From positions 3,076-67,075 of the forward strand of contig CACYCT010000081.1 in NCBI GenBank assembly GCA_902772965.1: 64,000 nucleotides of DNA, in the 5' to 3' direction. Under the pieces are notes generated by a model. The model had not been told where the DNA came from. It worked only from the letters and a program-made list of their open reading frames with translations, and ran no database searches. Positions 1,632-63,750 of the stretch are shown here, piece after piece (within the stretch, counting starts at the first letter, position 1; each line of letters starts with the position of its first letter). The translations under genes and the position numbers were made by a program. Source of the DNA: an uncultured Bacteroidales bacterium (GTDB lineage: Bacteria > Bacteroidota > Bacteroidia > Bacteroidales > Muribaculaceae).

Positions 1632-4600
1632 ATGAAACGTGTTTTCTTCAACACTGTACTTGCGCTACTTGCGGCAATGCTGTCTGTATTGCCGCTGCGA
1701 GCCCAGGTGGTGTTCAACACCACCAACTTCCCCGATGCCAATTTCCGGCAGTACCTGATGGACAACTTCCCCGACAAAGGCTTTACAGCCCTTGACGACA
1801 CCATCAGTTCTGACAACATCAACACAATTACATCTATCAATTGTCAGTCGAAAAATATCTCGAATTTAAAGGGAATCGAGTATTTCACGAATCTGAACTA
1901 TCTTAACTGCTCCCGCAATCGTCTCTCTTCACTGAACTTGAGCGGCTGCACCGCACTCAAAAATCTATATTGTAATAACAACTCTCTCTCAACACTGAAT
2001 GTGAGCAATTGCGCAGCGCTTACAACATTGCACTGTTATAGCAACTATCTGAATTCGTTAGACGTCAGCAATCTCACCTCGCTGACATCCTTGTACTGCT
2101 ATAGTAACCAGCTGACCTCGTTAGACGTCAGCAATCTTTCCAAACTGAACTACTTATACTGCAATAACAACCAACTGACTTCTTTAGACGTCAGCAGGAA
2201 TAGTAGTCTGTTATCCCTGTATTGTTACCAAAACAAGTTAGAGACGCTCTCAACAGGTCCCAACGAGAAAATACAGGACCTTTTCTGCTACAACAATCAA
2301 CTAACTTCGCTTGATCTGTCGCTGTATCTCGTACTCCGAAGAGTCAACTGTTCGAATAACAAGCTTAAGGCATTGAGTGTTGACTATAACGGTCAATTGA
2401 CCGAGTTGAATTGCTCGAATAATCAGTTGACCGTACTGTATTTGACACACAACAGTAGTTTGCAAAATCTTAATTGTTCCACCAATCAGTTGAGTACATT
2501 AGATATTAGCCCAAACACAAACCTCAAGAATTTCGATTGCTCCAACAACCAACTGACCGATTTGTCTTTAGCAAGCAATCGACTATTGACCAGCTTGACA
2601 TGTTCGGGCAACCAATTAACCACCCTTGACGTCAGTAAAAACACGTCGCTAAATTCTTTAACTTGTTCAAACAATCAGATCTCCTTACTTGATTTGAGCA
2701 GCAACACTTTGCTGAATAGCCTTGACTGCTCAAACAACCTATTAGAAACAATAGCGGCCAAAACAGTGACCACTCTGAATTGTTCGGGCAACAAGATTAC
2801 TGAGGTTGACTTTAGCGGCAACACCACAATCAACACCATCGACATATCCAACAATAGGATTTCACCCACACAAATGCAGCTTTTGGTTGAATCTTTAAGG
2901 ACTAACACATCAACCAATTCGGTCTTCAGGGTTATGAGCAACACCACGGAATTGAATGTGATGACTACCAGCCAGGTCGAGCTTGCGCAGAGCAAGGGGT
3001 GGACTCCTTTATGCGGCAACAACAACACCTGGACGGCTTATCTGGGCAGCGATGAGGCTCTTCCCATCAATGAGACAAACTTTCCTGACCCTGCATTCCG
3101 TGAATACCTCAAGTCGCTCACCGTAACCCTTGCCGACGGCACAACCATAACGCCCGGTTCTGACTCGATGCTGAATGCCACGGAGTTATACAGCATTACA
3201 ACCATCAACGTTCCGAATAATGCCTCGAATCTGAATGGCATTCATCTGCTGAGCCATGTCAACACAATTAATTGCGTAGGCAGTTCGCTGGAAGCACTTG
3301 AACTCCAATCCCTTTACAATTTCAAAAAATTAAACACCAGCGATTGCGACAACTTGAGCACTGTTAAGCTCACCGGTACGCAACTTGAGCGTGTCAGCCT
3401 TAACAATTGCCCTGCATTGGAAGAAATCGTATTCGGGAAAAGCGTCAGCCAGGTTATCATCAACGATTGCGAGTCTCTGGAAACGCTGAGCATTAGTGAT
3501 AAAGGAGTCACTTCGTTGCAAGTGTCAGCTTGTCCATCGCTGTTGACCATTGATTGTTCCAAAAACAAACTTACCGCCCTCGACATAACCGATCACACAT
3601 CTCTGATTACATTAAACTGTTCACAAAATCAGATTGAAAGTCTCAATGTCGGCTCAAACAGAAACTTGCAAACCCTCAATTGCAGTGGCAATCTGTTGAC
3701 GACCTTAGATGTAGCTCAAAACAGCTTGCTTCGCCAATTGAATTGCTCTCAAAACAACTTAGAGACGCTGGATGTCGGTAGCAATCCGTTACTGACAGAG
3801 TTAAAATGCAATAATAATCGTCTGAGCACTATCGATGTGACAAAACTGGCGAAATTAGCCTATTTTGATTTCAGCTACAACATTTTAACATCGGTAGATC
3901 TGAGCCAAAACGTGGCATTGACTGACTTGATTTGTGAGTTAAACCAATTGACAGTCCTCGACCTAACCCGGAACACTGAGCTTGTGCGCATTATTTGCAG
4001 GAATAATGCTTCTTTGACCTCCATCGTCGGTCTTCCAAAAAATGTGTCAGTCCTAACCGTCAATGGTTGCTCATCACTTGCCTCTCTGGATTGCTCAAAC
4101 CGAAAACTCAGGGCTCTCAATTTGAGTAACTGTTCATCGCTTGTGAATGTGAACTGCGCCAACAACCAGATTTCCACGCTGATTCTGGAAAACTGTTCGG
4201 CTCTGAAAGTACTCGATTGTCATGGAAACGCCCTATCATCCATAACAAATATAGCCGGGTTGGAGCTGGACTACTTAGACTGTTCGGCTAATGGAATTTC
4301 CGGCTTACCCAGAATGAGTGTTAAAGTATTGAAATGCTCAACACAATCAAATTCATTCTCTGTGTATTCAATCAATAACAACATAGACAAAAATAGACTT
4401 GAAGAATTAGATGTTTCGAACAACGTATTTGGCGGATCAGGAAATGTAGTTACGATTGAAGGATTTCCGAAATTGTCGCGTTTCGAGATTAGAGGTTGCC
4501 GATTTTTATCCTCAATCAGATGCAACTCAGAAAGGTTGAGCTATCTCGACATCAGCGACAATTATGCTATAAAATCTTTATCAATCCAAGGGAGCAACTT

Positions 4601-7340
4601 TTCAACTCTCGGTATAGATACCCTGATCAATTTACTACCCGAAGTCCCTTCAGCCCAACTATATGTTGACGACAACGTTAAAATGACCTCAAGTCAAGTG
4701 CTCGCAGCCAAAAACAAGGGGTGGACTGTAAATAGTGTCTATGGAGATGAATTCCAAGACGTTGACACAGGCATAGCCATTAATGAGGCAAACTTCCCTG
4801 ATGTCAAGTTCCGTACTTATTTGCTCAATCAGCCATATGGGCAGGATGCCTTGCTTCAAAATTCTGAAATCAGAGCAACTACCTCGTTAAACCTATCAAA
4901 TCAGGATATCACAAACCTGAAAGGTCTTGAGTATTTCAAAAACCTCAGAAATTTGGACTGCAGCGGCAATGACCGCTTGGAAACGATAGACTGTAGCAAC
5001 TTCGCACTGACAGAACTCAACATAGAAGGCTGCGCTTCGCTGAAAGCGCTTAGCACTTACGGAAACAAGTTGAGTGAAACCGCCATGAACAGCATCATCT
5101 CACAATTGCCTACAGTTGACACAGGAGAATATCTTGTTTGCCGTGATGGCAATACGGTTCTTGTTACCGCACAAGCCGACGTTGTTAGAGCTAAAGGTTG
5201 GACTCCAAAGTATTATGACAACCAGACCGGGCAATGGCTACCCTATGATGGTGTCGAAGATGCCGCACTTGAGATTAACGAAAGTAATTTCCCCGACGAG
5301 GCTTTCCGCAACTACCTGCTTGCTCAAGATTACGGTCAAGACGGTATCATCTCAGCGTTTGAGCGATTCAACCTTAAATATCTCAACGTTAGATCGAAAG
5401 GCATTTCTTCTCTATCCGGTATCGAACACTTCACTGAACTTGAATATTTAGTTTGCTTAAACAACAAACTGTCGAGCTTAGACCTGTCGGCACACAGCAA
5501 GTTGTTGCATCTGGATATTGGGTATAATCAATTCTCTTCATTAGATAACATTGCCGTTCTGAATCAGTTGCAATCTTTGCGCAATTTACGCTGCAACAAC
5601 AATCAGTTGACAGCCATCGATATCAGTCAATTGGCAGCTTTGGACACCCTTTATTGTCCTTACAACCAATTAACTACCCTTGCGCTTCAAAGCAATTCGT
5701 TGAAAGATTTGCGATGTGGCTATAACTTAATGACATCCTTAGACATTAGCCAGCTCACCGCCCTGGAGGTTCTGTATTGCCGAAATATCAACTTAACAAC
5801 TTTCGCACCTCAAAACAACACCTTAAAATATTTGGACTGCCAATATAACAAAATGACCTCCTTAGACATTAGCCAGCTCACCGCCCTGGAGAATCTATAT
5901 TGCAATAATAACAATTTAGCAACTTTCGCACCTCAAAACAACACCTTAAAATATTTGGACTGCAGTACTAATGGAATGAGCCAATTGGATGCCAGCAAGT
6001 GCCCTAAATTAGAAACTTTGCAATTTTACTCTGGTAACCCGAGTTTAGAACGTTTGAATGTCACGGGATGCACCGAACTGAAATACTTATTCTGTAGCCA
6101 TAACTCGAAATATCAAGCCGGAACAGTCACTACTGGAACCAGCGGAAAACTGGAACGGTTGGATCTTTCCACCAATGTGAAACTAATTGAGGTTGACTGC
6201 AGTGGGCACTTATTGAGTGAGTTGGATGTTCGAAACTGCAAAGACCTCAAAGTCCTGTGGTGCAATGCCAATAGACTGAAGAAATTGCGGGTAGACAACT
6301 GCACTAACCTGTCGGTACTTTTTGCTTGGGTTAATGAACTGGAAAGAGTGGATTTGAGTGGTTGCACCAACCTTGAGGTCTTAGACTTCTCGAATAATAA
6401 CTTCCAAACGATCGATTTGAGCAAAAACAAGGAATTGAGATACATCATCATCCACAACAATAGGTTGCCCAAGCTGGACGTTACCAACAACCCGAAGCTG
6501 ATGAATGTGAATTGTTCAAACAATCGCCTCAACTCGATTGACCTGTCTAAAAATTCCATCGATAGAACCCGACAGGTTTGGGCTTACGGTTCATTCCACC
6601 TGCCGGGCACCTCGCATGGCTTCAGCTGGGCTCCAAACGGCCGTACCATCAAAGCCGAGTGTGCGTTATTGCCCAAGGTTGTTAATGGTGAATATGTTTT
6701 AGACGAAAACGGTTGCGTCGTCTATGAGTCGTTATACTACCTGCGCCTGGACGACAACGTCAACACTGACGAGAGGAGTCTCTTGGGTCGAATGCTGGAG
6801 ACGGATGAGTCCGACTTCGATATAACTAAAGTTGACGAAAGTTCTTGGACAGGTGGTACTGTCTTCACCGGCACACGCGCTAAACGGATTTTAGGAGCTA
6901 ACAACCTGAAAGAAAAAGATGTTATCGGCAAAATATTGGTGCTAAACCCTGCTGCCGGCTCGGAGGAAAGCGGGACAGCAAGCGGCAGGGTGACATACAG
7001 ATATGTCACAGGCCATAACACTCCCGAACATTGGGCCAATTATGCCGCCGCTAATAACATCGACCTCAGTTCACCGGAGGGGCAACAAGCAATGGCTTGG
7101 ATAGACGATTCACCTACAGCCGAGGCTGTAAGTTGTTACATCAACTGGACTGCCGAAGTGGGTGTTATTACAGCTGTTGAGGACTTATATGAAGACAGAC
7201 CTCTTAAAGAAAAAGAGGTTGATTGCATCAAGTACTTCAACCTTTCGGGCCATTCCAGCAACCGTCCATTCAGCGGTCTCAACATTGTTGTGATTTATTA
7301 CAAAGACGGTTCGACCAGCGCCAGCAAGGTCTTCAAATAA
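1632..7340 (+). CDS. Giant (1902 aa) secreted leucine-rich-repeat protein, probable T9SS cargo
   Basis: Signal peptide MKRVFFNTVLALLAAMLSVLPLRAQ. Dozens of ~22-aa LxxLxCxxNxLxxLDxSxNxx repeats. Four NFPDxxFRxYL module heads and KGWT module ends. The C-terminus IKYFNLSGHSSNRPFSGLNIVVIYYKDGSTSASKVFK resembles a T9SS sorting domain. Confidence 0.9.
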   Translation: MKRVFFNTVLALLAAMLSVLPLRAQVVFNTTNFPDANFRQYLMDNFPDKGFTALDDTISSDNINTITSINCQSKNISNLKGIEYFTNLNYLNCSRNRLSSLNLSGCTALKNLYCNNNSLSTLNVSNCAALTTLHCYSNYLNSLDVSNLTSLTSLYCYSNQLTSLDVSNLSKLNYLYCNNNQLTSLDVSRNSSLLSLYCYQNKLETLSTGPNEKIQDLFCYNNQLTSLDLSLYLVLRRVNCSNNKLKALSVDYNGQLTELNCSNNQLTVLYLTHNSSLQNLNCSTNQLSTLDISPNTNLKNFDCSNNQLTDLSLASNRLLTSLTCSGNQLTTLDVSKNTSLNSLTCSNNQISLLDLSSNTLLNSLDCSNNLLETIAAKTVTTLNCSGNKITEVDFSGNTTINTIDISNNRISPTQMQLLVESLRTNTSTNSVFRVMSNTTELNVMTTSQVELAQSKGWTPLCGNNNTWTAYLGSDEALPINETNFPDPAFREYLKSLTVTLADGTTITPGSDSMLNATELYSITTINVPNNASNLNGIHLLSHVNTINCVGSSLEALELQSLYNFKKLNTSDCDNLSTVKLTGTQLERVSLNNCPALEEIVFGKSVSQVIINDCESLETLSISDKGVTSLQVSACPSLLTIDCSKNKLTALDITDHTSLITLNCSQNQIESLNVGSNRNLQTLNCSGNLLTTLDVAQNSLLRQLNCSQNNLETLDVGSNPLLTELKCNNNRLSTIDVTKLAKLAYFDFSYNILTSVDLSQNVALTDLICELNQLTVLDLTRNTELVRIICRNNASLTSIVGLPKNVSVLTVNGCSSLASLDCSNRKLRALNLSNCSSLVNVNCANNQISTLILENCSALKVLDCHGNALSSITNIAGLELDYLDCSANGISGLPRMSVKVLKCSTQSNSFSVYSINNNIDKNRLEELDVSNNVFGGSGNVVTIEGFPKLSRFEIRGCRFLSSIRCNSERLSYLDISDNYAIKSLSIQGSNFSTLGIDTLINLLPEVPSAQLYVDDNVKMTSSQVLAAKNKGWTVNSVYGDEFQDVDTGIAINEANFPDVKFRTYLLNQPYGQDALLQNSEIRATTSLNLSNQDITNLKGLEYFKNLRNLDCSGNDRLETIDCSNFALTELNIEGCASLKALSTYGNKLSETAMNSIISQLPTVDTGEYLVCRDGNTVLVTAQADVVRAKGWTPKYYDNQTGQWLPYDGVEDAALEINESNFPDEAFRNYLLAQDYGQDGIISAFERFNLKYLNVRSKGISSLSGIEHFTELEYLVCLNNKLSSLDLSAHSKLLHLDIGYNQFSSLDNIAVLNQLQSLRNLRCNNNQLTAIDISQLAALDTLYCPYNQLTTLALQSNSLKDLRCGYNLMTSLDISQLTALEVLYCRNINLTTFAPQNNTLKYLDCQYNKMTSLDISQLTALENLYCNNNNLATFAPQNNTLKYLDCSTNGMSQLDASKCPKLETLQFYSGNPSLERLNVTGCTELKYLFCSHNSKYQAGTVTTGTSGKLERLDLSTNVKLIEVDCSGHLLSELDVRNCKDLKVLWCNANRLKKLRVDNCTNLSVLFAWVNELERVDLSGCTNLEVLDFSNNNFQTIDLSKNKELRYIIIHNNRLPKLDVTNNPKLMNVNCSNNRLNSIDLSKNSIDRTRQVWAYGSFHLPGTSHGFSWAPNGRTIKAECALLPKVVNGEYVLDENGCVVYESLYYLRLDDNVNTDERSLLGRMLETDESDFDITKVDESSWTGGTVFTGTRAKRILGANNLKEKDVIGKILVLNPAAGSEESGTASGRVTYRYVTGHNTPEHWANYAAANNIDLSSPEGQQAMAWIDDSPTAEAVSCYINWTAEVGVITAVEDLYEDRPLKEKEVDCIKYFNLSGHSSNRPFSGLNIVVIYYKDGSTSASKVFK
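5730..5975 (+). repeat. Tandem 123-bp (41-codon) duplication inside the LRR gene
   Basis: 5730-5852 and 5853-5975 encode MTSLDISQLTALEVLYCRNINLTTFAPQNNTLKYLDCQYNK and MTSLDISQLTALENLYCNNNNLATFAPQNNTLKYLDCSTNG. Two long stretches are identical at the nucleotide level. Confidence 0.85.
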
Positions 7341-59268: not shown

Positions 59269-59276
59269 CAAAGGTA
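59269..59276 (-). promoter_or_regulatory. -7 box TACCTTTG upstream of the dCMP deaminase gene
   Basis: Matches TAnnTTTG on the minus strand, 66 nt upstream of the ATG at 59203. Confidence 0.45.
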
Positions 59277-59378
59277 GTGCAAAAAATCGTAACAACCTTA
59301 ACCCCGGCAGAAAAAAACTGCTCTGAAATGTTTTGTGTGGGTAAGCCTGCAATATTTTCTGCGAATCAGCGCCGGAGA

Positions 59379-59464
59379 GTTCCACGTGTTCCATCTGTTC
59401 CAACGTTCCATCTGTTCCAACGTTCCATGTGTTCCACTTGTTCCATGTGTTCCGCTTGTTCCGG
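59379..59464 (+). repeat. Array 1: 10 tandem 8-9-bp units with a GTTCC core
   Basis: Units: gttccacgt gttccatct gttccaac gttccatct gttccaac gttccatgt gttccactt gttccatgt gttccgctt gttccgg. Spacings are 9,9,8,9,8,9,9,9,9. Confidence 0.95.
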
Positions 59465-59578
59465 ACTACGATTTCATCTGTGAGATACTATCAATTTACA
59501 GTTAATGCCGGAATGGCACCTCTACCCGCCGTATCATGCGATGATTCCATATTCCCGTGACCTGAGGGCGACATCTTT

Positions 59579-59638
59579 GGAACATCCGGAACACGCGGAA
59601 CAAGTGGAACAACGGAACAGCGGAACAGGCGGAACACG
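59579..59638 (-). repeat. Array 2: 7 tandem units, inverted relative to array 1 (GGAAC on the plus strand)
   Basis: Units: ggaacatcc ggaacacgc ggaacaagt ggaacaac ggaacagc ggaacaggc ggaacacgc. A 114-bp spacer separates it from array 1. An isolated GTTCC lies at 59694-59698. Confidence 0.95.
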
Positions 59639-59767
59639 CATGGGGTGTGATTTGTAACCGACTGGTATTCAAATGCGTGTGACGCGTCTGCGTGTTCCGC
59701 CCGCTTTGTGACACACCTGTGTGTACCCGACTTTAAATTGATATGGACAGGCATCGGTCCACCGACG

Positions 59768-59775
59768 TAATTTTG
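59768..59775 (+). promoter_or_regulatory. -7 box TAATTTTG upstream of the cassette ATPase gene
   Basis: Matches TAnnTTTG, 58 nt upstream of the ATG at 59833 and 130 nt downstream of array 2. Confidence 0.45.
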
Positions 59776-59832
59776 CAGCGTCGAGACACACACGCCTTGA
59801 CTTTCGTTAACCTTAACCTTTAATCCAATCAC

Positions 59833-60828
59833 ATGATGAACAACCAACAAAATCAAGCCCTTGCCTCAGCAGGGACTCAGGGCGGCGGCATTTCAGCAGC
59901 CGACTACCTCGCCCGCATGAAACAGAAAGAGATCCACACCTCAGGCTCGATGATCATGACGGTGAACGACACGCTTCGCGTCGCACGTCGCAAACCGCAG
60001 GCCGAAGACCTCTGGAACGGTATGGTGTTTGAGCGAGAGTGCACCGTGATCTTCAGCGACTCGAACGTGGGTAAGTCCATCTTGGCCGTTCAAATCGGTG
60101 TGAGCATCGCCAAAAGCGGGCGTAACGTGCTCTACATGGACTACGAGATGAGCGACCTCCAGTTCGCGGCACGATACACCAACCCCTACAACAAGCAGTT
60201 CTACCACTTCCCCGACAACTTCTTCCGTGCCGAGCAGCATGCCGATGCCCTGCAGGTTGACCCTATCGAGAACATCAAGGAATGTATCGGAGCGGTGGCG
60301 GCCGATGTCGTGATTATCGACAACATCACCTGGCTGGCCAACGAAACCGAGAGCGGAGACGTTGCCGGACGACTGATGATGGAACTGATCCAACTCAAGC
60401 GCAAGGCCGGACTGACCCTGATCATCATCGCCCACACGCCTAAACGCCCACTCGGGCAGATTCTCACGCAGAACGACCTCGGCGGATCCAAGAAAATCAT
60501 GAACTTTGTCGACTGCGCCATAGGGCTGGCCAAGTGCGTGTTCAAACCCGAGATGCGGTACCTCAAAAACATCAAGAACCGTTCGGCATCAATCGTCTAC
60601 GGTAGCAACCACGTCTGGCTTTGCGAACTGGTCACTACCGAGAACTTCTGCCACTTCGCATTCACCGGTACGGCCGACGAGTTGCAGGTGCTCAAACCGT
60701 ATGACGCCAAGCGCGAGCAACTTGAGGCCGATGTCAAGCGTATGCACAATCAGGGACACACGCAACGTTTCATAGCGCAGCAGCTCGGCGTCGGACTCGC
60801 GACCGTAAACCGCATTCTGAACGGATAA
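59833..60828 (+). CDS. RecA/DnaB-like (AAA_25/RepA-type) P-loop ATPase with a C-terminal helix-turn-helix
   Basis: Walker A FSDSNVGKS and Walker B VVIIDNITW. The pattern LTLIIIAHTPK is typical of RepA/AAA_25 proteins (from memory). The last ~30 aa, GHTQRFIAQQLGVGLATVNRILNG, look like a resolvase/sigma-region-4-type HTH. Confidence 0.8.
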   Translation: MMNNQQNQALASAGTQGGGISAADYLARMKQKEIHTSGSMIMTVNDTLRVARRKPQAEDLWNGMVFERECTVIFSDSNVGKSILAVQIGVSIAKSGRNVLYMDYEMSDLQFAARYTNPYNKQFYHFPDNFFRAEQHADALQVDPIENIKECIGAVAADVVIIDNITWLANETESGDVAGRLMMELIQLKRKAGLTLIIIAHTPKRPLGQILTQNDLGGSKKIMNFVDCAIGLAKCVFKPEMRYLKNIKNRSASIVYGSNHVWLCELVTTENFCHFAFTGTADELQVLKPYDAKREQLEADVKRMHNQGHTQRFIAQQLGVGLATVNRILNG

Positions 60829-60834
60829 CCGCCT

Positions 60835-60918
60835 GTTCCGCTGTTCCAATGTTCAGTCTGTTCCGGGTGTTCCGCGTGTTCCAAAGTTCCGCGTGTTCCA
60901 TCTTTCCGGGGTTGGAAC
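60835..60918 (+). repeat. Array 3: 8 GTTCC-core units (one degenerate) plus one inverted unit, filling the ORF1-ORF2 intergenic gap
   Basis: Units: gttccgct gttccaat gttcagtct gttccgggt gttccgcgt gttccaaa gttccgcgt gttccatct, then tttcc and an inverted ggaac (60914-60918). It starts 6 nt after the ORF1 stop and ends 38 nt before the ORF2 ATG. Confidence 0.9.
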
Positions 60919-60955
60919 ACGCCGAACGCCCGGAAACCATAAAACACCAATAACC

Positions 60956-61633
60956 ATGAAATACAATTTTCCCACCGACGACGATTTCTACAACGACTTC
61001 GCCGCCATAAAAACCTGCCACGGCAACACCGCCGAAATCATAGCGCTTTACCGGCAATCGTCAGCCACCGACACCGACCTGTTCGGACAATCCCTGATCG
61101 ACCGCTTCCCGGAACGCACCATCGCCGTCGTGGCCAATCCCCAAACCGCGCTTCTGGCCGCTCTGGAACGGCCCAGATACAGAAATGAGGAAATCCTCTG
61201 GGTCGCCACCTGCAACGAAATGCTCACCGAAGACCACCTCGCTCCGCTGTTGCACCGCAAGATTGACTTCTGGCCCACCGCCCGACAATTCAACCAATGG
61301 GAGCATCTGGTCTACCTCATCGACACCAATTACCTGAGTTTCTTCAAATACACATATGTGTGCGACGTATTCGTAACCTTCCAAGCGTATGCCGACCGGT
61401 TCGCTCCGCAATTCGCACGCTTGGCCAAGCCTGACGCCGACATAAGTACGGTATTGTCGCTACCGGACTTGTTGAGACAGTTGTTTTTCAGCACCATCTT
61501 CTCGTGTCTGCGCACTCACTTTCTGAGTTGCACCTGTCGAATGACTTGGTTTGAGCGGTTAATGCTCATGTCGGAAGCCCAAATAGCCTATGAGCAATTC
61601 CGTCTCGAAGCGCTGGTGCCTTTCACCGATTAA
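60956..61633 (+). CDS. Hypothetical 225-aa protein (orphan; faint degenerate Toprim-like pattern)
   Basis: Start set at MKYNFPTDDDF, since the upstream extension in the track reads through the repeat array. No confident family. ERTIAVVANPQTALLAA...ILWVAT...KIDFWPTARQFNQW faintly recalls Toprim-like domains next to AAA_25 genes in Bacteroidales, but lacks the acidic catalytic residues. Confidence 0.6.
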   Translation: MKYNFPTDDDFYNDFAAIKTCHGNTAEIIALYRQSSATDTDLFGQSLIDRFPERTIAVVANPQTALLAALERPRYRNEEILWVATCNEMLTEDHLAPLLHRKIDFWPTARQFNQWEHLVYLIDTNYLSFFKYTYVCDVFVTFQAYADRFAPQFARLAKPDADISTVLSLPDLLRQLFFSTIFSCLRTHFLSCTCRMTWFERLMLMSEAQIAYEQFRLEALVPFTD

Positions 61634-61740
61634 CAACCGGCTCCCGAACCTAAGCCCGAGCCGAAACCCGCGAGGAAGTATCTCCCTCGCCGGAAAGCCG
61701 TTTTGCCCGATGGCACCACTCCGGTCGGAAGGTGACACGT

Positions 61741-61826
61741 GGAACAGCGGAACAAGTGGAACACACGGAACAGCGGAACAAGTGGAACACACGGAATAGC
61801 GGAACAAGTGGAACACACGGAACATC
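61741..61826 (-). repeat. Array 4: 10 tandem units (GGAAC on the plus strand) with a 26-bp higher-order repeat x3
   Basis: (ggaacagc ggaacaagt ggaacacac) x3, with one GGAAT variant, plus ggaacatc. It is inverted relative to arrays 1 and 3 and ends 23 nt before the aguB stop codon. Confidence 0.95.
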
Positions 61827-61849
61827 AACCTCAATCGAGGCGGGCCTGT

Positions 61850-62728
61850 CTAATCTATGAACCGGCGGGTGAGGAATGCGTAATGGTCGATGCGGCGGTC
61901 GCGCAGGAAGGGCCACCAGCGGCGCACGTTCTCACACCGGCGCAGGTCGAGGTCGACAATCTGCTCGGCCTCGGTGTCGGTGGGGGCTTGGTAGAGCAGT
62001 TCGCCCTGCGAGCCGGCGACGAAACTGCTTCCCCAGAATTGTATTCCGCGCGTCTGGGCGGAGGGGTCGGGTTCGTGTCCGACGCGGTTGACGGCCACAA
62101 CGGGCAGTCCGTTGGCCACCGCATGGCCGCGCTGCACGGTAATCCACGCCTCACGCTGCCGCAGTTGTTCGGCCGGGGTGTCGCTCGATTCAAATCCGAT
62201 GGCGGTGGGGTAGATGAGTATCTCGGCTCCGGCGAGTGCCATCAGCCGCGCGGCTTCGGGATACCACTGGTCCCAGCACACCATCACGCCGAGGTGTCCC
62301 ACGGAGGTGTCGATGGGTTGGAAGCCGAGGTCTCCGGGTGTGAAGTAGAATTTCTCGTAATAGGCCGGGTCGTCGGGGATGTGCATTTTGCGGTATTTTC
62401 CGGCGATTGTGCCATCGGTTTCGAAGACTACGGCGGTGTTGTGGTACAGTCCGGCGGCGCGGCGCTCGAAAAGTGAGCTGACCAGCACAATGCCGCACTC
62501 GCGGGCGATGCGGGCGTAGTACTCTGTGGCCGGCCCGTCGGGGATGGGTTCGGCGAGGTTGAAGTTGTCGATCGATTCCACCTGGCAGAAGTAGAGCGAG
62601 TCGTGGAGTTCCTGCAAGACAATCAGTTGCGCTCCGTTTGCGGCGAGCGTGCGGATTTTTTGTTCGAGGCGGGCGCGGTTGTCTTGGATTGAGTCGGTGT
62701 TATGTTGCTGGATGAGTCCGATTTTCAT
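61850..62728 (-). CDS. aguB: N-carbamoylputrescine amidase
   Basis: 292-aa CN-hydrolase (LIVLQELH..., CWDQWYPE catalytic Cys region). Overlaps the aguA stop (ATGA). Confidence 0.9.
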   Translation of the reverse strand: MKIGLIQQHNTDSIQDNRARLEQKIRTLAANGAQLIVLQELHDSLYFCQVESIDNFNLAEPIPDGPATEYYARIARECGIVLVSSLFERRAAGLYHNTAVVFETDGTIAGKYRKMHIPDDPAYYEKFYFTPGDLGFQPIDTSVGHLGVMVCWDQWYPEAARLMALAGAEILIYPTAIGFESSDTPAEQLRQREAWITVQRGHAVANGLPVVAVNRVGHEPDPSAQTRGIQFWGSSFVAGSQGELLYQAPTDTEAEQIVDLDLRRCENVRRWWPFLRDRRIDHYAFLTRRFID

Positions 62729-63750
62729 GGGGCGAGTGTTCCTTGTGTTAGTTGCATGGTGGCGCAGTGCAGCGAACCGTGTTGTTTTATCAGTGGGAGG
62801 CAGTTGATGGAGATTGCGGGACGGCGTGCGGCTTTTTCAAGTATTTCCCGTGCCAGGCTGTCGCGCCGGGGTTGACCGTATGCGGGCACGTAGACGTGCT
62901 TGGGCGTGAGCAGGAAGTTGGCGTAGGTGGCGGGAAGTCGCTGTCCGGTTTCGTCGTATATGTTTTTGGGTGCGGGCAGTTCGAAAACGGTGTAGGGCAC
63001 GCCATCGGCATTCTTGAACGACTTGATTTGCGCGGCCATCTGCCGCATGGCGCTGGCCTCTTTCGAGTTTGGCTGTGCCGTGGTGTGGCATATCGCGTTG
63101 TCGGGCAGGAAGCGTGCGAGGGTGTCGATATGGGAGTCGGTGTCGTCGCCGGGAATGAATCCGTGGTCGAGCCAGAGGATGTTTCTGGCGTTGAGGCATT
63201 GCTTTAATTTCTGTTCGATTTCCTGTTTGCTCAGGACGTTCCGGTTGGGTGACAGTAGGCATTGCGATGTGACCATGACGGTTCCGTTTCCGTCGGATTC
63301 GATGGAGCCGCCTTCGAGCACGAAGTCGAGGTGGTTTTCCATCTGCGCGGCGAGGAGGCCTTTCCGGTGGAGGGTGGAGTTGACCTGGTTGTCGAGATTG
63401 GCGGCGAATTTCATTCCCCATGCGTTGAAGGTGAAGTTGAGCAGTCGGGGATTACCGTTTTCGAGCACGGAGATGGGACCGTAGTCGCGGATCCACGTGT
63501 CGTTGGTCGGGACTTCGATGATGGTGACGTTGTCGGCGTTGATGCCTTTTACGGCGCGCTGAACCGCTTCCCCGCTCGGGGCGACAATGATTATCCGCGG
63601 CTCGTTGGCCATGGCCTTGACGATGTCGCGGTAGCAGCGCTCAATCTCGTTGAGCATCGGCGCCCAGTCGGTGTGTCGATGCGGCCAGGCGAGCAGAATG
63701 CCGTCCTGCTTTTCCCACTCGGCGGGAAAAGACCTGTTGTTGTCTGTCAT
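62725..63750 (-). CDS. aguA: Agmatine deiminase
   Basis: Start set at MTDNNRSFPAEWEKQDGILLAWPH. WIRDYGP, HIDTLARF, and a C-terminal GSLHCATMQ (catalytic Cys) are family hallmarks. Confidence 0.92.
   Translation of the reverse strand: MTDNNRSFPAEWEKQDGILLAWPHRHTDWAPMLNEIERCYRDIVKAMANEPRIIIVAPSGEAVQRAVKGINADNVTIIEVPTNDTWIRDYGPISVLENGNPRLLNFTFNAWGMKFAANLDNQVNSTLHRKGLLAAQMENHLDFVLEGGSIESDGNGTVMVTSQCLLSPNRNVLSKQEIEQKLKQCLNARNILWLDHGFIPGDDTDSHIDTLARFLPDNAICHTTAQPNSKEASAMRQMAAQIKSFKNADGVPYTVFELPAPKNIYDETGQRLPATYANFLLTPKHVYVPAYGQPRRDSLAREILEKAARRPAISINCLPLIKQHGSLHCATMQLTQGTLAP

Follow-up and report, generated by a model that had tools for sequence, protein, structure and literature searches.

The locus described here raises the question of how a small cassette that encodes a helicase-like ATPase, and no gene for its own movement, came to lie between two housekeeping genes, and what it may still do there. 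It is part of a window of 64,000 nucleotides (the whole stretch of DNA that was analysed, to whose first letter all coordinates refer) from an uncultured Bacteroidales bacterium of the Muribaculaceae (assembly GCA_902772965.1, contig CACYCT010000081.1, positions 3,076 to 67,075 of the forward strand). The cassette occupies approximately 59379-61824 of the inter-gene region 59277-61849 and consists of two plus-strand open reading frames (ORF1 and ORF2) and four arrays (A1 to A4) of 8-9-bp units with the core TGTTCC. Our preferred reading, to which we assign a probability of roughly 60%, is that the cassette is a streamlined, non-autonomous derivative of a helicase-iteron-primase module, with a self-loading helicase that would bind the repeat units (iterons), a dead primase and no integrase.

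Identity of the two encoded proteins

ORF1 (59833-60828, plus strand) encodes a protein of 331 aa. Its Walker A (SDSNVGKS, 60055-60078) and Walker B (VVIIDNITW, 60307-60333) motifs, both on the plus strand, had been noticed in the initial annotation, which placed them in a RepA/AAA_25-like context and saw a short helix-turn-helix (HTH) at the C-terminus. This assignment was borne out by a Pfam match to AAA_25 (3.3e-15, 56.7 bits, cut-off 27) and by profile matches of the protein family in the PDB. A KaiC-type ATPase family was matched at 5e-9, comparison with NCBIfam placed the protein among RadA, RadB, KaiC and DnaB-like proteins, far under their cut-offs, and the PHROGs families retrieved were DNA primase/helicase and DnaB-like helicase. 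The single ORF1 sequence found no match in the PDB and a family profile was needed; the profile of 15 members matched the T7 gp4 helicase domain (1.4e-6), followed by KaiC, RadA, DnaB-like helicases and Twinkle. All residues that are invariant in the family (K81 of Walker A, D163 of Walker B, H201, K204 and R205) are kept in ORF1, together with the AHTPKR motif. The HTH (approximately 60727-60825, plus strand) forms the end of the protein (...FIAQQLGVGLATVNRILNG); residues 299-330 match HTH_7 at 1.9e-4, which is under the Pfam cut-off, and several HTH families match weakly over the last 30 residues. More than 2,200 homologues at 36-49% identity were retrieved, all of which combine AAA_25 with a C-terminal HTH. 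Because of the AAA_25 match, the gp4- and DnaB-directed profile matches and the conserved invariant residues, ORF1 is assigned, by homology, to the superfamily 4 (SF4) RecA-fold ATPases of the T7 gp4/DnaB/RepA type, extended by a C-terminal HTH. As a separate observation, the HTH of the ORF1 family (residues 288-327) resembles chain A of PDB entry 8vd6 ('CAP REPEAT', 185 aa; 1.6e-15, three stretches) and also designed DNA-binding proteins such as 8tac ('DBP48'); 8vd6 itself seems to be a designed or repeat protein constructed around an HTH of similar kind.

ORF2 (60956-61633 from its ATG, plus strand, 225 aa) had been considered an orphan that matches nothing nameable. This view is overturned by an above-threshold Pfam match to DUF6371 (8e-8, 32.7 bits, cut-off 27.7), which covers only profile positions 78-148 of 150. 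Word-indexed searches with ORF2 found just one near-identical protein or 7 proteins; only 16 relatives were collected even when HMMER was run exhaustively against 1.8 billion representative proteins, as proved necessary. These fall into two kinds, small proteins of 143-210 aa and long proteins of 335-488 aa. The long relatives carry a zinc ribbon (Zn_ribbon_16 or DnaG CHC2 type), then the first half of DUF6371 and finally the part that is matched by ORF2. ORF2 itself aligns with the C-terminal half of full-length DUF6371 members and begins approximately 30 residues before the Toprim strand; it contains no N-terminal zinc-binding domain (neither Zn_ribbon_16 nor Zn_ribbon_DnaG), and the N-terminal catalytic subdomain is also gone. 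In the alignment, the long forms display VESEKTA, FPDxDG and IDIA, the Toprim glutamate and DxD signature, and the short forms have VVANPxTA, FxPTARQxxQW and DxD at the aligned positions. In ORF2, VESEKTA is replaced by VVANPQTA (VVANP at the catalytic glutamate site, 61127-61141, plus strand) and FPDxDG by FWPTARQ (PTA at the DxD site, 61274-61282, plus strand). The replacements are found throughout the short clade, in which PTARQxxQW is conserved as a new motif. The faint Toprim resemblance suspected earlier is supported by this alignment and by the model of a full-length relative (see below), and the suspected replacement of the acidic positions (A-N for E, P-T-A for DxD) could be located precisely, since the full-length relatives have VESEKTA and FPDxDG exactly there.

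The structural models extend this assignment. For the AlphaFold model of one long member (P0133; mean predicted local distance difference test (pLDDT) score of 81), the top 34 PDB matches were all DnaG-type primases, among them Aquifex DnaG with its zinc-binding domain (6e-6), the DnaG cores of B. subtilis and E. coli, the T7 gp4 primase fragment and T4 gp61. A sequence search of the PDB with the DUF6371 alignment gave no match. On the strength of the model, DUF6371 together with its zinc ribbon is predicted to be a DnaG-type primase with DUF6371 as the catalytic domain; a description of DUF6371 as such a primase was not found in the literature searchable here. The ORF2 model (pLDDT 82) shows a Toprim-type core of the order beta-alpha-beta-alpha-beta-alpha-beta with a helical tail. 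By alignment ORF2 is assigned to the Toprim subdomain of DUF6371, without its catalytic acidic residues, and the predicted fold is consistent with this. As it is reduced to this subdomain and has lost the catalytic glutamate and the DxD motif, ORF2 is not expected to be able to prime, and its most likely remaining role is that of a partner or regulator of the helicase without catalytic activity of its own.

Parent module and dead-Toprim lineage

The gene neighborhoods of the ORF1 family were surveyed at 80 metagenomic loci (here and below, L numbers denote individual loci). In nearly all of them the gene directly after the ATPase-HTH gene encodes a DUF6371 protein, which in most cases has 310-434 aa and intact catalytic motifs. 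The arrangement of ATPase-HTH gene, iterons and DUF6371 gene recurs, with the same order and with homologues of both genes, in L009, L172 and most of the 80 loci. In L009 a tyrosine integrase gene, a gene of unknown function and two excisionase-like HTH_17 genes precede the ATPase and primase genes, which are followed by Dnd-type cargo. In L178 the order is integrase, two unknown genes, ATPase, primase, resolvase, HicAB and then a tape-measure gene. A circular 10-kb B. fragilis record (CP103138.1) combines the ATPase and the DUF6371 protein with a mobilization protein, cfxA, integrase, transposase and excisionase, and is a Tn4555-like mobilizable transposon. The same trio is listed in the gene table of MTnBf8 as orf7 (AAA), orf8 (topoisomerase-primase) and orf9 (mobN1-like) (PMC13597742). 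The pair had initially been presented as a free-standing novelty; this did not stand, as most homologues reside in ordinary integrated elements that encode a tyrosine integrase, excisionase-like HTH_17 proteins and, in many cases, Mob. Judged by homology and gene order, the cassette pair derives from the helicase-HTH, inverted iteron and zinc-ribbon primase module of Bacteroidales integrated elements of the Tn4555/NBU-like kind (NBU, non-replicating Bacteroides unit).

The comparison with the Bacteroides mobilizable transposons (CP103138.1, MTnBf8 orf7/orf8 and NBU-type elements) defines what was kept and what was lost. ORF1 is 36-45% identical to their ATPases and has the same combination of AAA_25 and C-terminal HTH, ORF2 corresponds by homology to the C-terminal half of their DUF6371 primase, and gene order and short iteron arrays at the gene junction are shared. 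The cassette differs in having no integrase, excisionase, Mob gene or cargo, in a primase reduced to a Toprim remnant without zinc ribbon and catalytic residues, in four arrays with approximately 34 units versus one inverted pair of about 6-10, and in the core TGTTCC versus their common TGTCCCA.

The parent module is also present outside these transposons. Among 46 predicted viral contigs from IMG/VR that carry an ORF1 relative (L181-L226, several of approximately 410 kb), 30 have the active primase form and 0 the dead form. ORF1 relatives (34-41% identical) were further seen in two unannotated 'Bacteriophage sp.' records from human faecal viromes, MT836838.1 (11.4 kb) and MT839118.1 (6.3 kb). 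Mobilizable transposons are therefore not the only carriers of the helicase-primase module. ATPase clades without a DUF6371 partner (L139, L167) occur in other element types (resolvase, NADAR, WYL). A second integrase-less form (L011 9692-11528; L180; L113) was observed, in which a solo ATPase-HTH protein of 450-466 aa with a long low-complexity N-terminal extension, and no DUF6371 gene, is bordered by TGTTCGG arrays on both sides, with an aminotransferase gene and prmA as its neighbors; this type accounts for at least a dozen of the 90%-identity clusters in the top 120 ORF1 matches.

Neighbor-joining analysis of 81 ATPases groups those with a short, dead ORF2 as partner into a single clade (bootstrap 199/200), which comprises the window, L007, L001, L008, L092, L173, L176, L115 and the partial loci L170 and L098. 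An inner group of the window with L001, L008, L092 and L173 is supported by 192 of 200 replicates. Monophyly of the clade, together with a mutual identity of only about 40-50%, implies that zinc ribbon and catalytic residues were lost a single time in the distant past and that the pair has been maintained since. Five of the six clade loci with enough flanking sequence, the window included, are surrounded by housekeeping genes or ordinary chromosomal ones, and the sequence available for these loci contains no integrase. The L001 cassette lies between the genes for a TonB-dependent receptor and an esterase (10 kb on each side), that of L008 between HepT and polA (approximately 5-6 kb on each side), L173 has about 9-10 kb of such surroundings on each side, and L176, for which 9 kb on one side only is available, abuts ackA-pta. 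The exception is L115, a small element of approximately 6 kb beside secDF with an integrase 1.6 kb away; the basal L098 has an integrase upstream. Synteny is not conserved between cassettes of different species. The initial annotation had allowed that the cassette might be a trivial decayed fragment of ordinary elements. The part of this that stood concerns the wider family, which does inhabit ordinary elements. The cassette, by contrast, belongs to a monophyletic dead-primase lineage that recurs without an integrase, and because of this monophyly and recurrence the phylogenetic evidence argues that it is not simply a decayed fragment but a distinct old lineage that lost integrase and primase activity.

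Iteron arrays, candidate promoter and borders of the cassette

The outermost left array, A1 (59379-59462, plus strand), contains 10 GTTCC-core units at a spacing of 8-9 bp. It is separated by a 116-bp spacer (59463-59578; GC content 0.47 vs 0.54 for the window), a candidate unwinding region, from the opposed array A2 (59579-59636, minus strand), whose 7 units read GGAAC on the plus strand. A3 (60829-60935) consists of 7 forward TGTTCC units (60829-60900) and a short degenerate inverted set (60911-60935); it begins 1 nt after the ORF1 stop codon, where iterons are canonically placed in this family, and has an inverted partner. The outermost right array, A4 (61741-61824, minus strand), has 10 units in the form of 3.2 copies of a 26-bp higher-order repeat (GGAACAGCGGAACAAGTGGAACACAC) with 96% identity. 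A2 and A3 form an inverted repeat of 58 nt (84% complementary) that brackets ORF1, and A1 and A4 form an outer inverted pair of 78 nt (71% complementary). The sequence TGTTCCNNNTGTTCC occurs 15 times in the window, always within 59387-61824, and 0 times in shuffled sequence. In total, the cassette contains approximately 34 iteron units vs 6-10 typical of parent elements. A lone unit, GCGTGTTCCGCC, at 59690-59701 between A2 and the -7 box of ORF1, may serve as an operator.

Most surveyed loci have two opposed arrays of 8-9-bp units, placed at the ATPase/primase junction or just 5' of the ATPase gene. The commonest core of the family is TGTCCCA/TGGGACA, and variants are TGTTCA, TGTTCG, TGTATC, TGTCCA, TGTCCG, TGTCTC, TGCTTC and the TGTTCC of the window. 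Read on the other strand, most cores share ACA after a variable triplet (xxxACA), and at least three such repeats are present in 47 of 81 non-redundant loci. The variable part goes along with the recognition helix of the HTH: SKSTVQR and SKSKVGR are found with GGGACA, SLGSVNNY and SVGAVNKY with TGAACA, SLGKVQRA with GATACA, SKSRIQQL with TGGACA, and GLATVNRI of the window with GGAACA. Similarity between recognition helices was 0.45-0.48 for pairs of loci with the same core vs 0.32-0.36 for pairs with different cores, in all four bands of ATPase identity; the locus pairs are non-independent and hence no p-value is given, and the direction was consistent in all four bands. At the level of sequence, the iteron core co-varies with the HTH recognition helix. 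Neither a co-varying iteron/HTH code nor an origin-like unit in Bacteroidales elements was found described in the literature searchable here. In full-length elements (L009 11145-11209 and many others), the inverted arrays often extend into an adjoining ORF as annotated, either at the 5' end of that for the primase or at the 3' end of that for the ATPase, and gene callers probably misplace start codons at such positions.

A -7 box of the Bacteroidetes type (TAATTTTG, 59768-59775, plus strand) lies between A2 and ORF1, 58 bp 5' of the ORF1 ATG, and is likely to be the promoter of an ORF1-ORF2 operon. The scan for -7 boxes found no TAnnTTTG box between ORF1 and ORF2, so that ORF2 has none of its own and the box 5' of ORF1 is the sole one for the pair. 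A scan for sigma-70 promoters and terminators performed no better than on shuffled sequence, and Rfam and tRNA scans of the cassette gave no match. On the left, the cassette is bordered by the -7 box of the dCMP deaminase gene (TACCTTTG, 59269-59276, minus strand), and on the right by the stop codon (61850) of aguB, which encodes an N-carbamoylputrescine amidase of the CN_hydrolase family. A1 lies 103 bp from the dCMP deaminase -7 box and A4 lies 25 bp from the aguB stop codon.

Among 80 reference-genome loci with aguB, one (L068, from an uncultured Bacteroidales bin; its dCMP deaminase is 80% identical) has the flanking synteny of the window. Its gene order is aguA, aguB, 160 bp, dCMP deaminase and S41 peptidase, and the cassette is absent. 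In L068 aguB stands directly beside the dCMP deaminase gene, and compared with that arrangement the window has gained about 2.45-2.57 kb by insertion of the cassette; L068 is too distant for base-exact insertion junctions. The GC content of the cassette equals that of the host genome. ORF1 and ORF2 are its only genes, without an integrase, transposase or Mob gene; neither protein matched Mob families, and no oriT was found in the cassette. No integrase was present among the genes at 57-64 kb or among the housekeeping genes of the next 4 kb downstream on L006, a locus of a sister strain, and no recombinase or integrase among ten large genes scanned at 35-57 kb, all housekeeping. Apart from the arrays themselves, no att-like direct repeats of at least 7 bp were detected at the borders. 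The sole tRNA gene of the window, at 19.5 kb, is 40 kb away from the cassette, and no second copy of the cassette exists within the 64-kb window. Several claims of the initial annotation are thereby confirmed: the position between the dCMP deaminase promoter and the aguB 3' end with the outer arrays near both, an insertion of about 2.55 kb (with L068 having only 160 bp at that place), the lack of a recognisable recombinase in the cassette, and the lack of a TAnnTTTG box for ORF2.

Comparison with the sister strain (L007, 99% identical; L006 represents the same strain) revealed variation at the right end. The 98 bp at 61677-61774 of the window, between ORF2 and A4, are replaced in the sister strain by an AT-rich segment of 476 bp (L006 1518-1993; L007 2153-2683), which contains a 119-aa minus-strand ORF without family match in Pfam or PADLOC. 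A4 has 4.8 copies in the sister strain vs 9.7 in the window, so that array copy number varies within the species. The higher-order repeat of A4, in 3.2 nearly perfect copies, points to a recent expansion of this array.

Proposed mechanism, competing explanations and related systems

The preferred reading implies the following mechanism. ORF1 would assemble as a hexamer, its HTH would read the TGTTCC units, and the helicase would load at the inverted arrays. In the parent elements, the excised circle would begin to replicate upon such loading, and the neighboring primase would supply the primers. In the cassette, ORF1 would probably still bind the four arrays and thereby at least control expression of its own operon with ORF2. 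Such binding might also fire or titrate replication on any DNA with matching iterons; ORF2 would probably have a helicase-binding or regulatory role. The cassette should be unable to excise or transfer by itself because it has no integrase, excisionase or Mob gene. The layout of the parent module matches that of a self-loading initiator-helicase origin such as SaPI Rep/ori (SaPI, Staphylococcus aureus pathogenicity island), in the sense of a functional resemblance.

Several points weigh against this reading. DNA binding by the HTH, self-loading of the helicase, the origin function, the role of ORF2 and the present role of the cassette are all inferred. The spacers between the arrays are only mildly AT-rich and an unwinding element is not evident in them. 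A4 has no counterpart in other integrase-less cassettes. The fold of ORF2 is predicted, and Foldseek comparison of its model with the PDB gave no significant match (best E 0.058); in BFVD, the best matches are nearly all DnaG-like or TOPRIM phage primases, and these are weak (E 0.014-0.1). The parent module may also not be replicative at all but linked to excision: Shoemaker and colleagues are said to have scored, in 2000, the NBU1 equivalents (orf3 and prmN1) as required for excision, and the very name of the NBUs calls them 'non-replicating'. Finally, ORF2 differs from its counterpart in the sister strain by 2 synonymous and 4 non-synonymous changes, which looks relaxed but is based on counts too small to judge, and its stop codon (61631-61633) is TAA in the window and TCA in the sister strain, where the protein is extended by 22 residues to 247 aa.

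These ORF2 data lend themselves to the leading alternative, which is nevertheless unlikely. The cassette would be a trivial decaying relic of an NBU/Tn4555-type insert that lost integrase, excisionase, Mob and cargo, the remainder drifting towards functionless pseudogenes. The missing integrase, Mob gene, oriT and att repeats, the lost catalytic residues and zinc ribbon of ORF2, its substitutions and polymorphic stop codon, and the strain differences in array copy number and in the segment after ORF2 would all be expected of such a relic. It is contradicted by the intactness of both ORFs, by the retention of every family-invariant residue in ORF1 and by the changes in ORF1 between the strains (10 synonymous, 1 non-synonymous), which clearly indicate purifying selection at this level of comparison. 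For aguB and aguA (window 61850-63750 vs L006), the ratios of non-synonymous to synonymous changes are 6:4 and 4:3, similar to that of ORF2 and odd for core genes; they may reflect metagenome-assembly noise or mixed strains. A relic would also not explain why the ATPases that accompany the truncated ORF2 and its own PTARQxxQW motif are monophyletic and yet only about 40-50% identical to one another, which suggests an ancient loss followed by maintenance of the pair, why the same pair is found without an integrase in the available sequence of four other independent loci, or why cassette and host have the same GC content.

It is also conceivable, though speculative and unlikely, that the dead-Toprim cassettes constitute an unrecognised class of integrase-less element or domesticated locus in Bacteroidales, in which a new function has preserved the initiator-helicase and the expanded arrays over tens of millions of years and the dead Toprim protein was repurposed as a helicase regulator. 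If so, that function could be replication or amplification of the surrounding chromosome in situ, a free ride on resident mobilizable elements or the exclusion of such elements by way of the iterons.

Rather doubtful is a non-autonomous mobile element (a mini integrative and mobilizable element, or satellite) for whose excision, replication and movement a resident full-length element would provide integrase, primase and transfer functions in trans. The chromosomal context differs from one cassette of the clade to the next (aguB/dCMP deaminase, TonB-dependent receptor/esterase, HepT/polA, ackA-pta), the site is empty in L068, and the window cassette is bounded by inverted arrays; the basal clade members L115 and L098 still have an integrase nearby, and the variable segment between ORF2 and A4 resembles a cargo slot. 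Against it speak the lack of flanking direct repeats of at least 7 bp other than the arrays, of an oriT or Mob gene and of a second copy in the 64-kb window; other cassettes lack a downstream terminal array, and the dead form accompanies none of the 46 ORF1 relatives in IMG/VR.

Less probable still is a domesticated host locus, in which the iteron-binding ATPase and the arrays would counter or compete with incoming elements of the same iteron type (incompatibility or defence) or regulate neighboring genes. Purifying selection on ORF1, the long persistence of the lineage without mobility genes, a number of units (approximately 34 vs 6-10 in the parents) suited to titration and the end of A1 about 100 bp from the dCMP deaminase promoter are in line with this idea. 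It conflicts with the lack of an effector domain and of conserved synteny between cassettes of different species, and the only defence-related signal was a weak P-loop-level match of ORF1 to mad8 in PADLOC (2.6e-6, no single matched stretch passing; ORF2 had no match). A centromere-like partition module, with the arrays as a parC- or parS-like site bound by the HTH-ATPase, was rejected as very improbable: although the parC site of R1 likewise has arrays of short direct repeats flanking a promoter region and ORF1 has a weak Pfam match to CbiA/ParA (7e-4, under the cut-off), the ATPase is RecA/DnaB-like and not ParA- or ParM-like, and the constant partner across the family is a primase, neither of which fits partition.

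Known replication systems illustrate the helicase-iteron-primase reading by analogy. In SaPIs, the helicase Rep recognises 6-12 iterons through a C-terminal DNA-binding domain, and these lie directly downstream of rep in two opposed sets (PMC9371898). The Pri-Rep-ori units of SaPIs and other phage-inducible chromosomal islands (PICIs) thus share with the module a helicase with a C-terminal DNA-binding domain (binding by ORF1 being predicted), iterons directly 3' in two opposed sets and a separate adjoining primase gene, all inside an integrated element. They differ in that SaPI Rep is an AAA+ protein of the superfamily 3 (SF3) clade with a winged helix, whereas ORF1 is assigned to the SF4 RecA-fold proteins with a simple HTH, in the gene order (pri-rep-ori vs rep-ori-pri here), in the lack of sequence homology and in the primase being dead here, which makes the relation one of analogy and not of membership. 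T7 gp4 and the DnaB-DnaG pair are linked to the module through the match of the ORF1-family profile to the gp4 helicase domain and of the full-length DUF6371 protein model to the primase domains of gp4, DnaG and T4 gp61. Here, two separate proteins are encoded with the helicase gene first, the helicase carries a predicted origin-reading HTH, and ORF2 corresponds to the Toprim subdomain only, without metal-binding acidic residues.

The element-encoded alpha protein of phage P4 unites an active primase and an SF3-type helicase in a single polypeptide and recognises octamer iterons (TGTTCACC) through its C-terminal domain. These iterons are located in two separate cis regions, ori and crr, that flank the alpha gene, and the cassette similarly has arrays upstream (A1/A2) and downstream (A3/A4), without homology between the systems. 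The RepA/RepB'/RepC system of RSF1010 also combines a helicase, a primase and iterons, and AAA_25 is the Pfam family of RepA-like hexameric helicases; it differs in that a third protein, RepC, reads the iterons and that the primase has another fold, whereas here the predicted iteron-reading domain is fused to the helicase.

The widespread DUF6371 family would gain a function by its assignment as a DnaG-type primase. Tn4555/NBU-type and related elements would possess a helicase-iteron-primase unit organised like a self-loading origin, with an iteron specificity that tracks the HTH, which bears on the maintenance of these very common gut carriers of resistance genes after excision. The cassette documents a lineage in which this unit appears to have outlived integrase and primase activity, and it provides a tractable case of domestication or parasitism among mobile elements with a cleanly defined candidate cognate pair, the TGTTCC arrays and the GLATVNR helix. 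Far from the cassette, the window contains an ORF of 1,902 aa (1632-7340) with tandem repeats of 63 bp and 123 bp (at 2017-2196 and 5721-5963), which may encode a repeat-rich surface protein.

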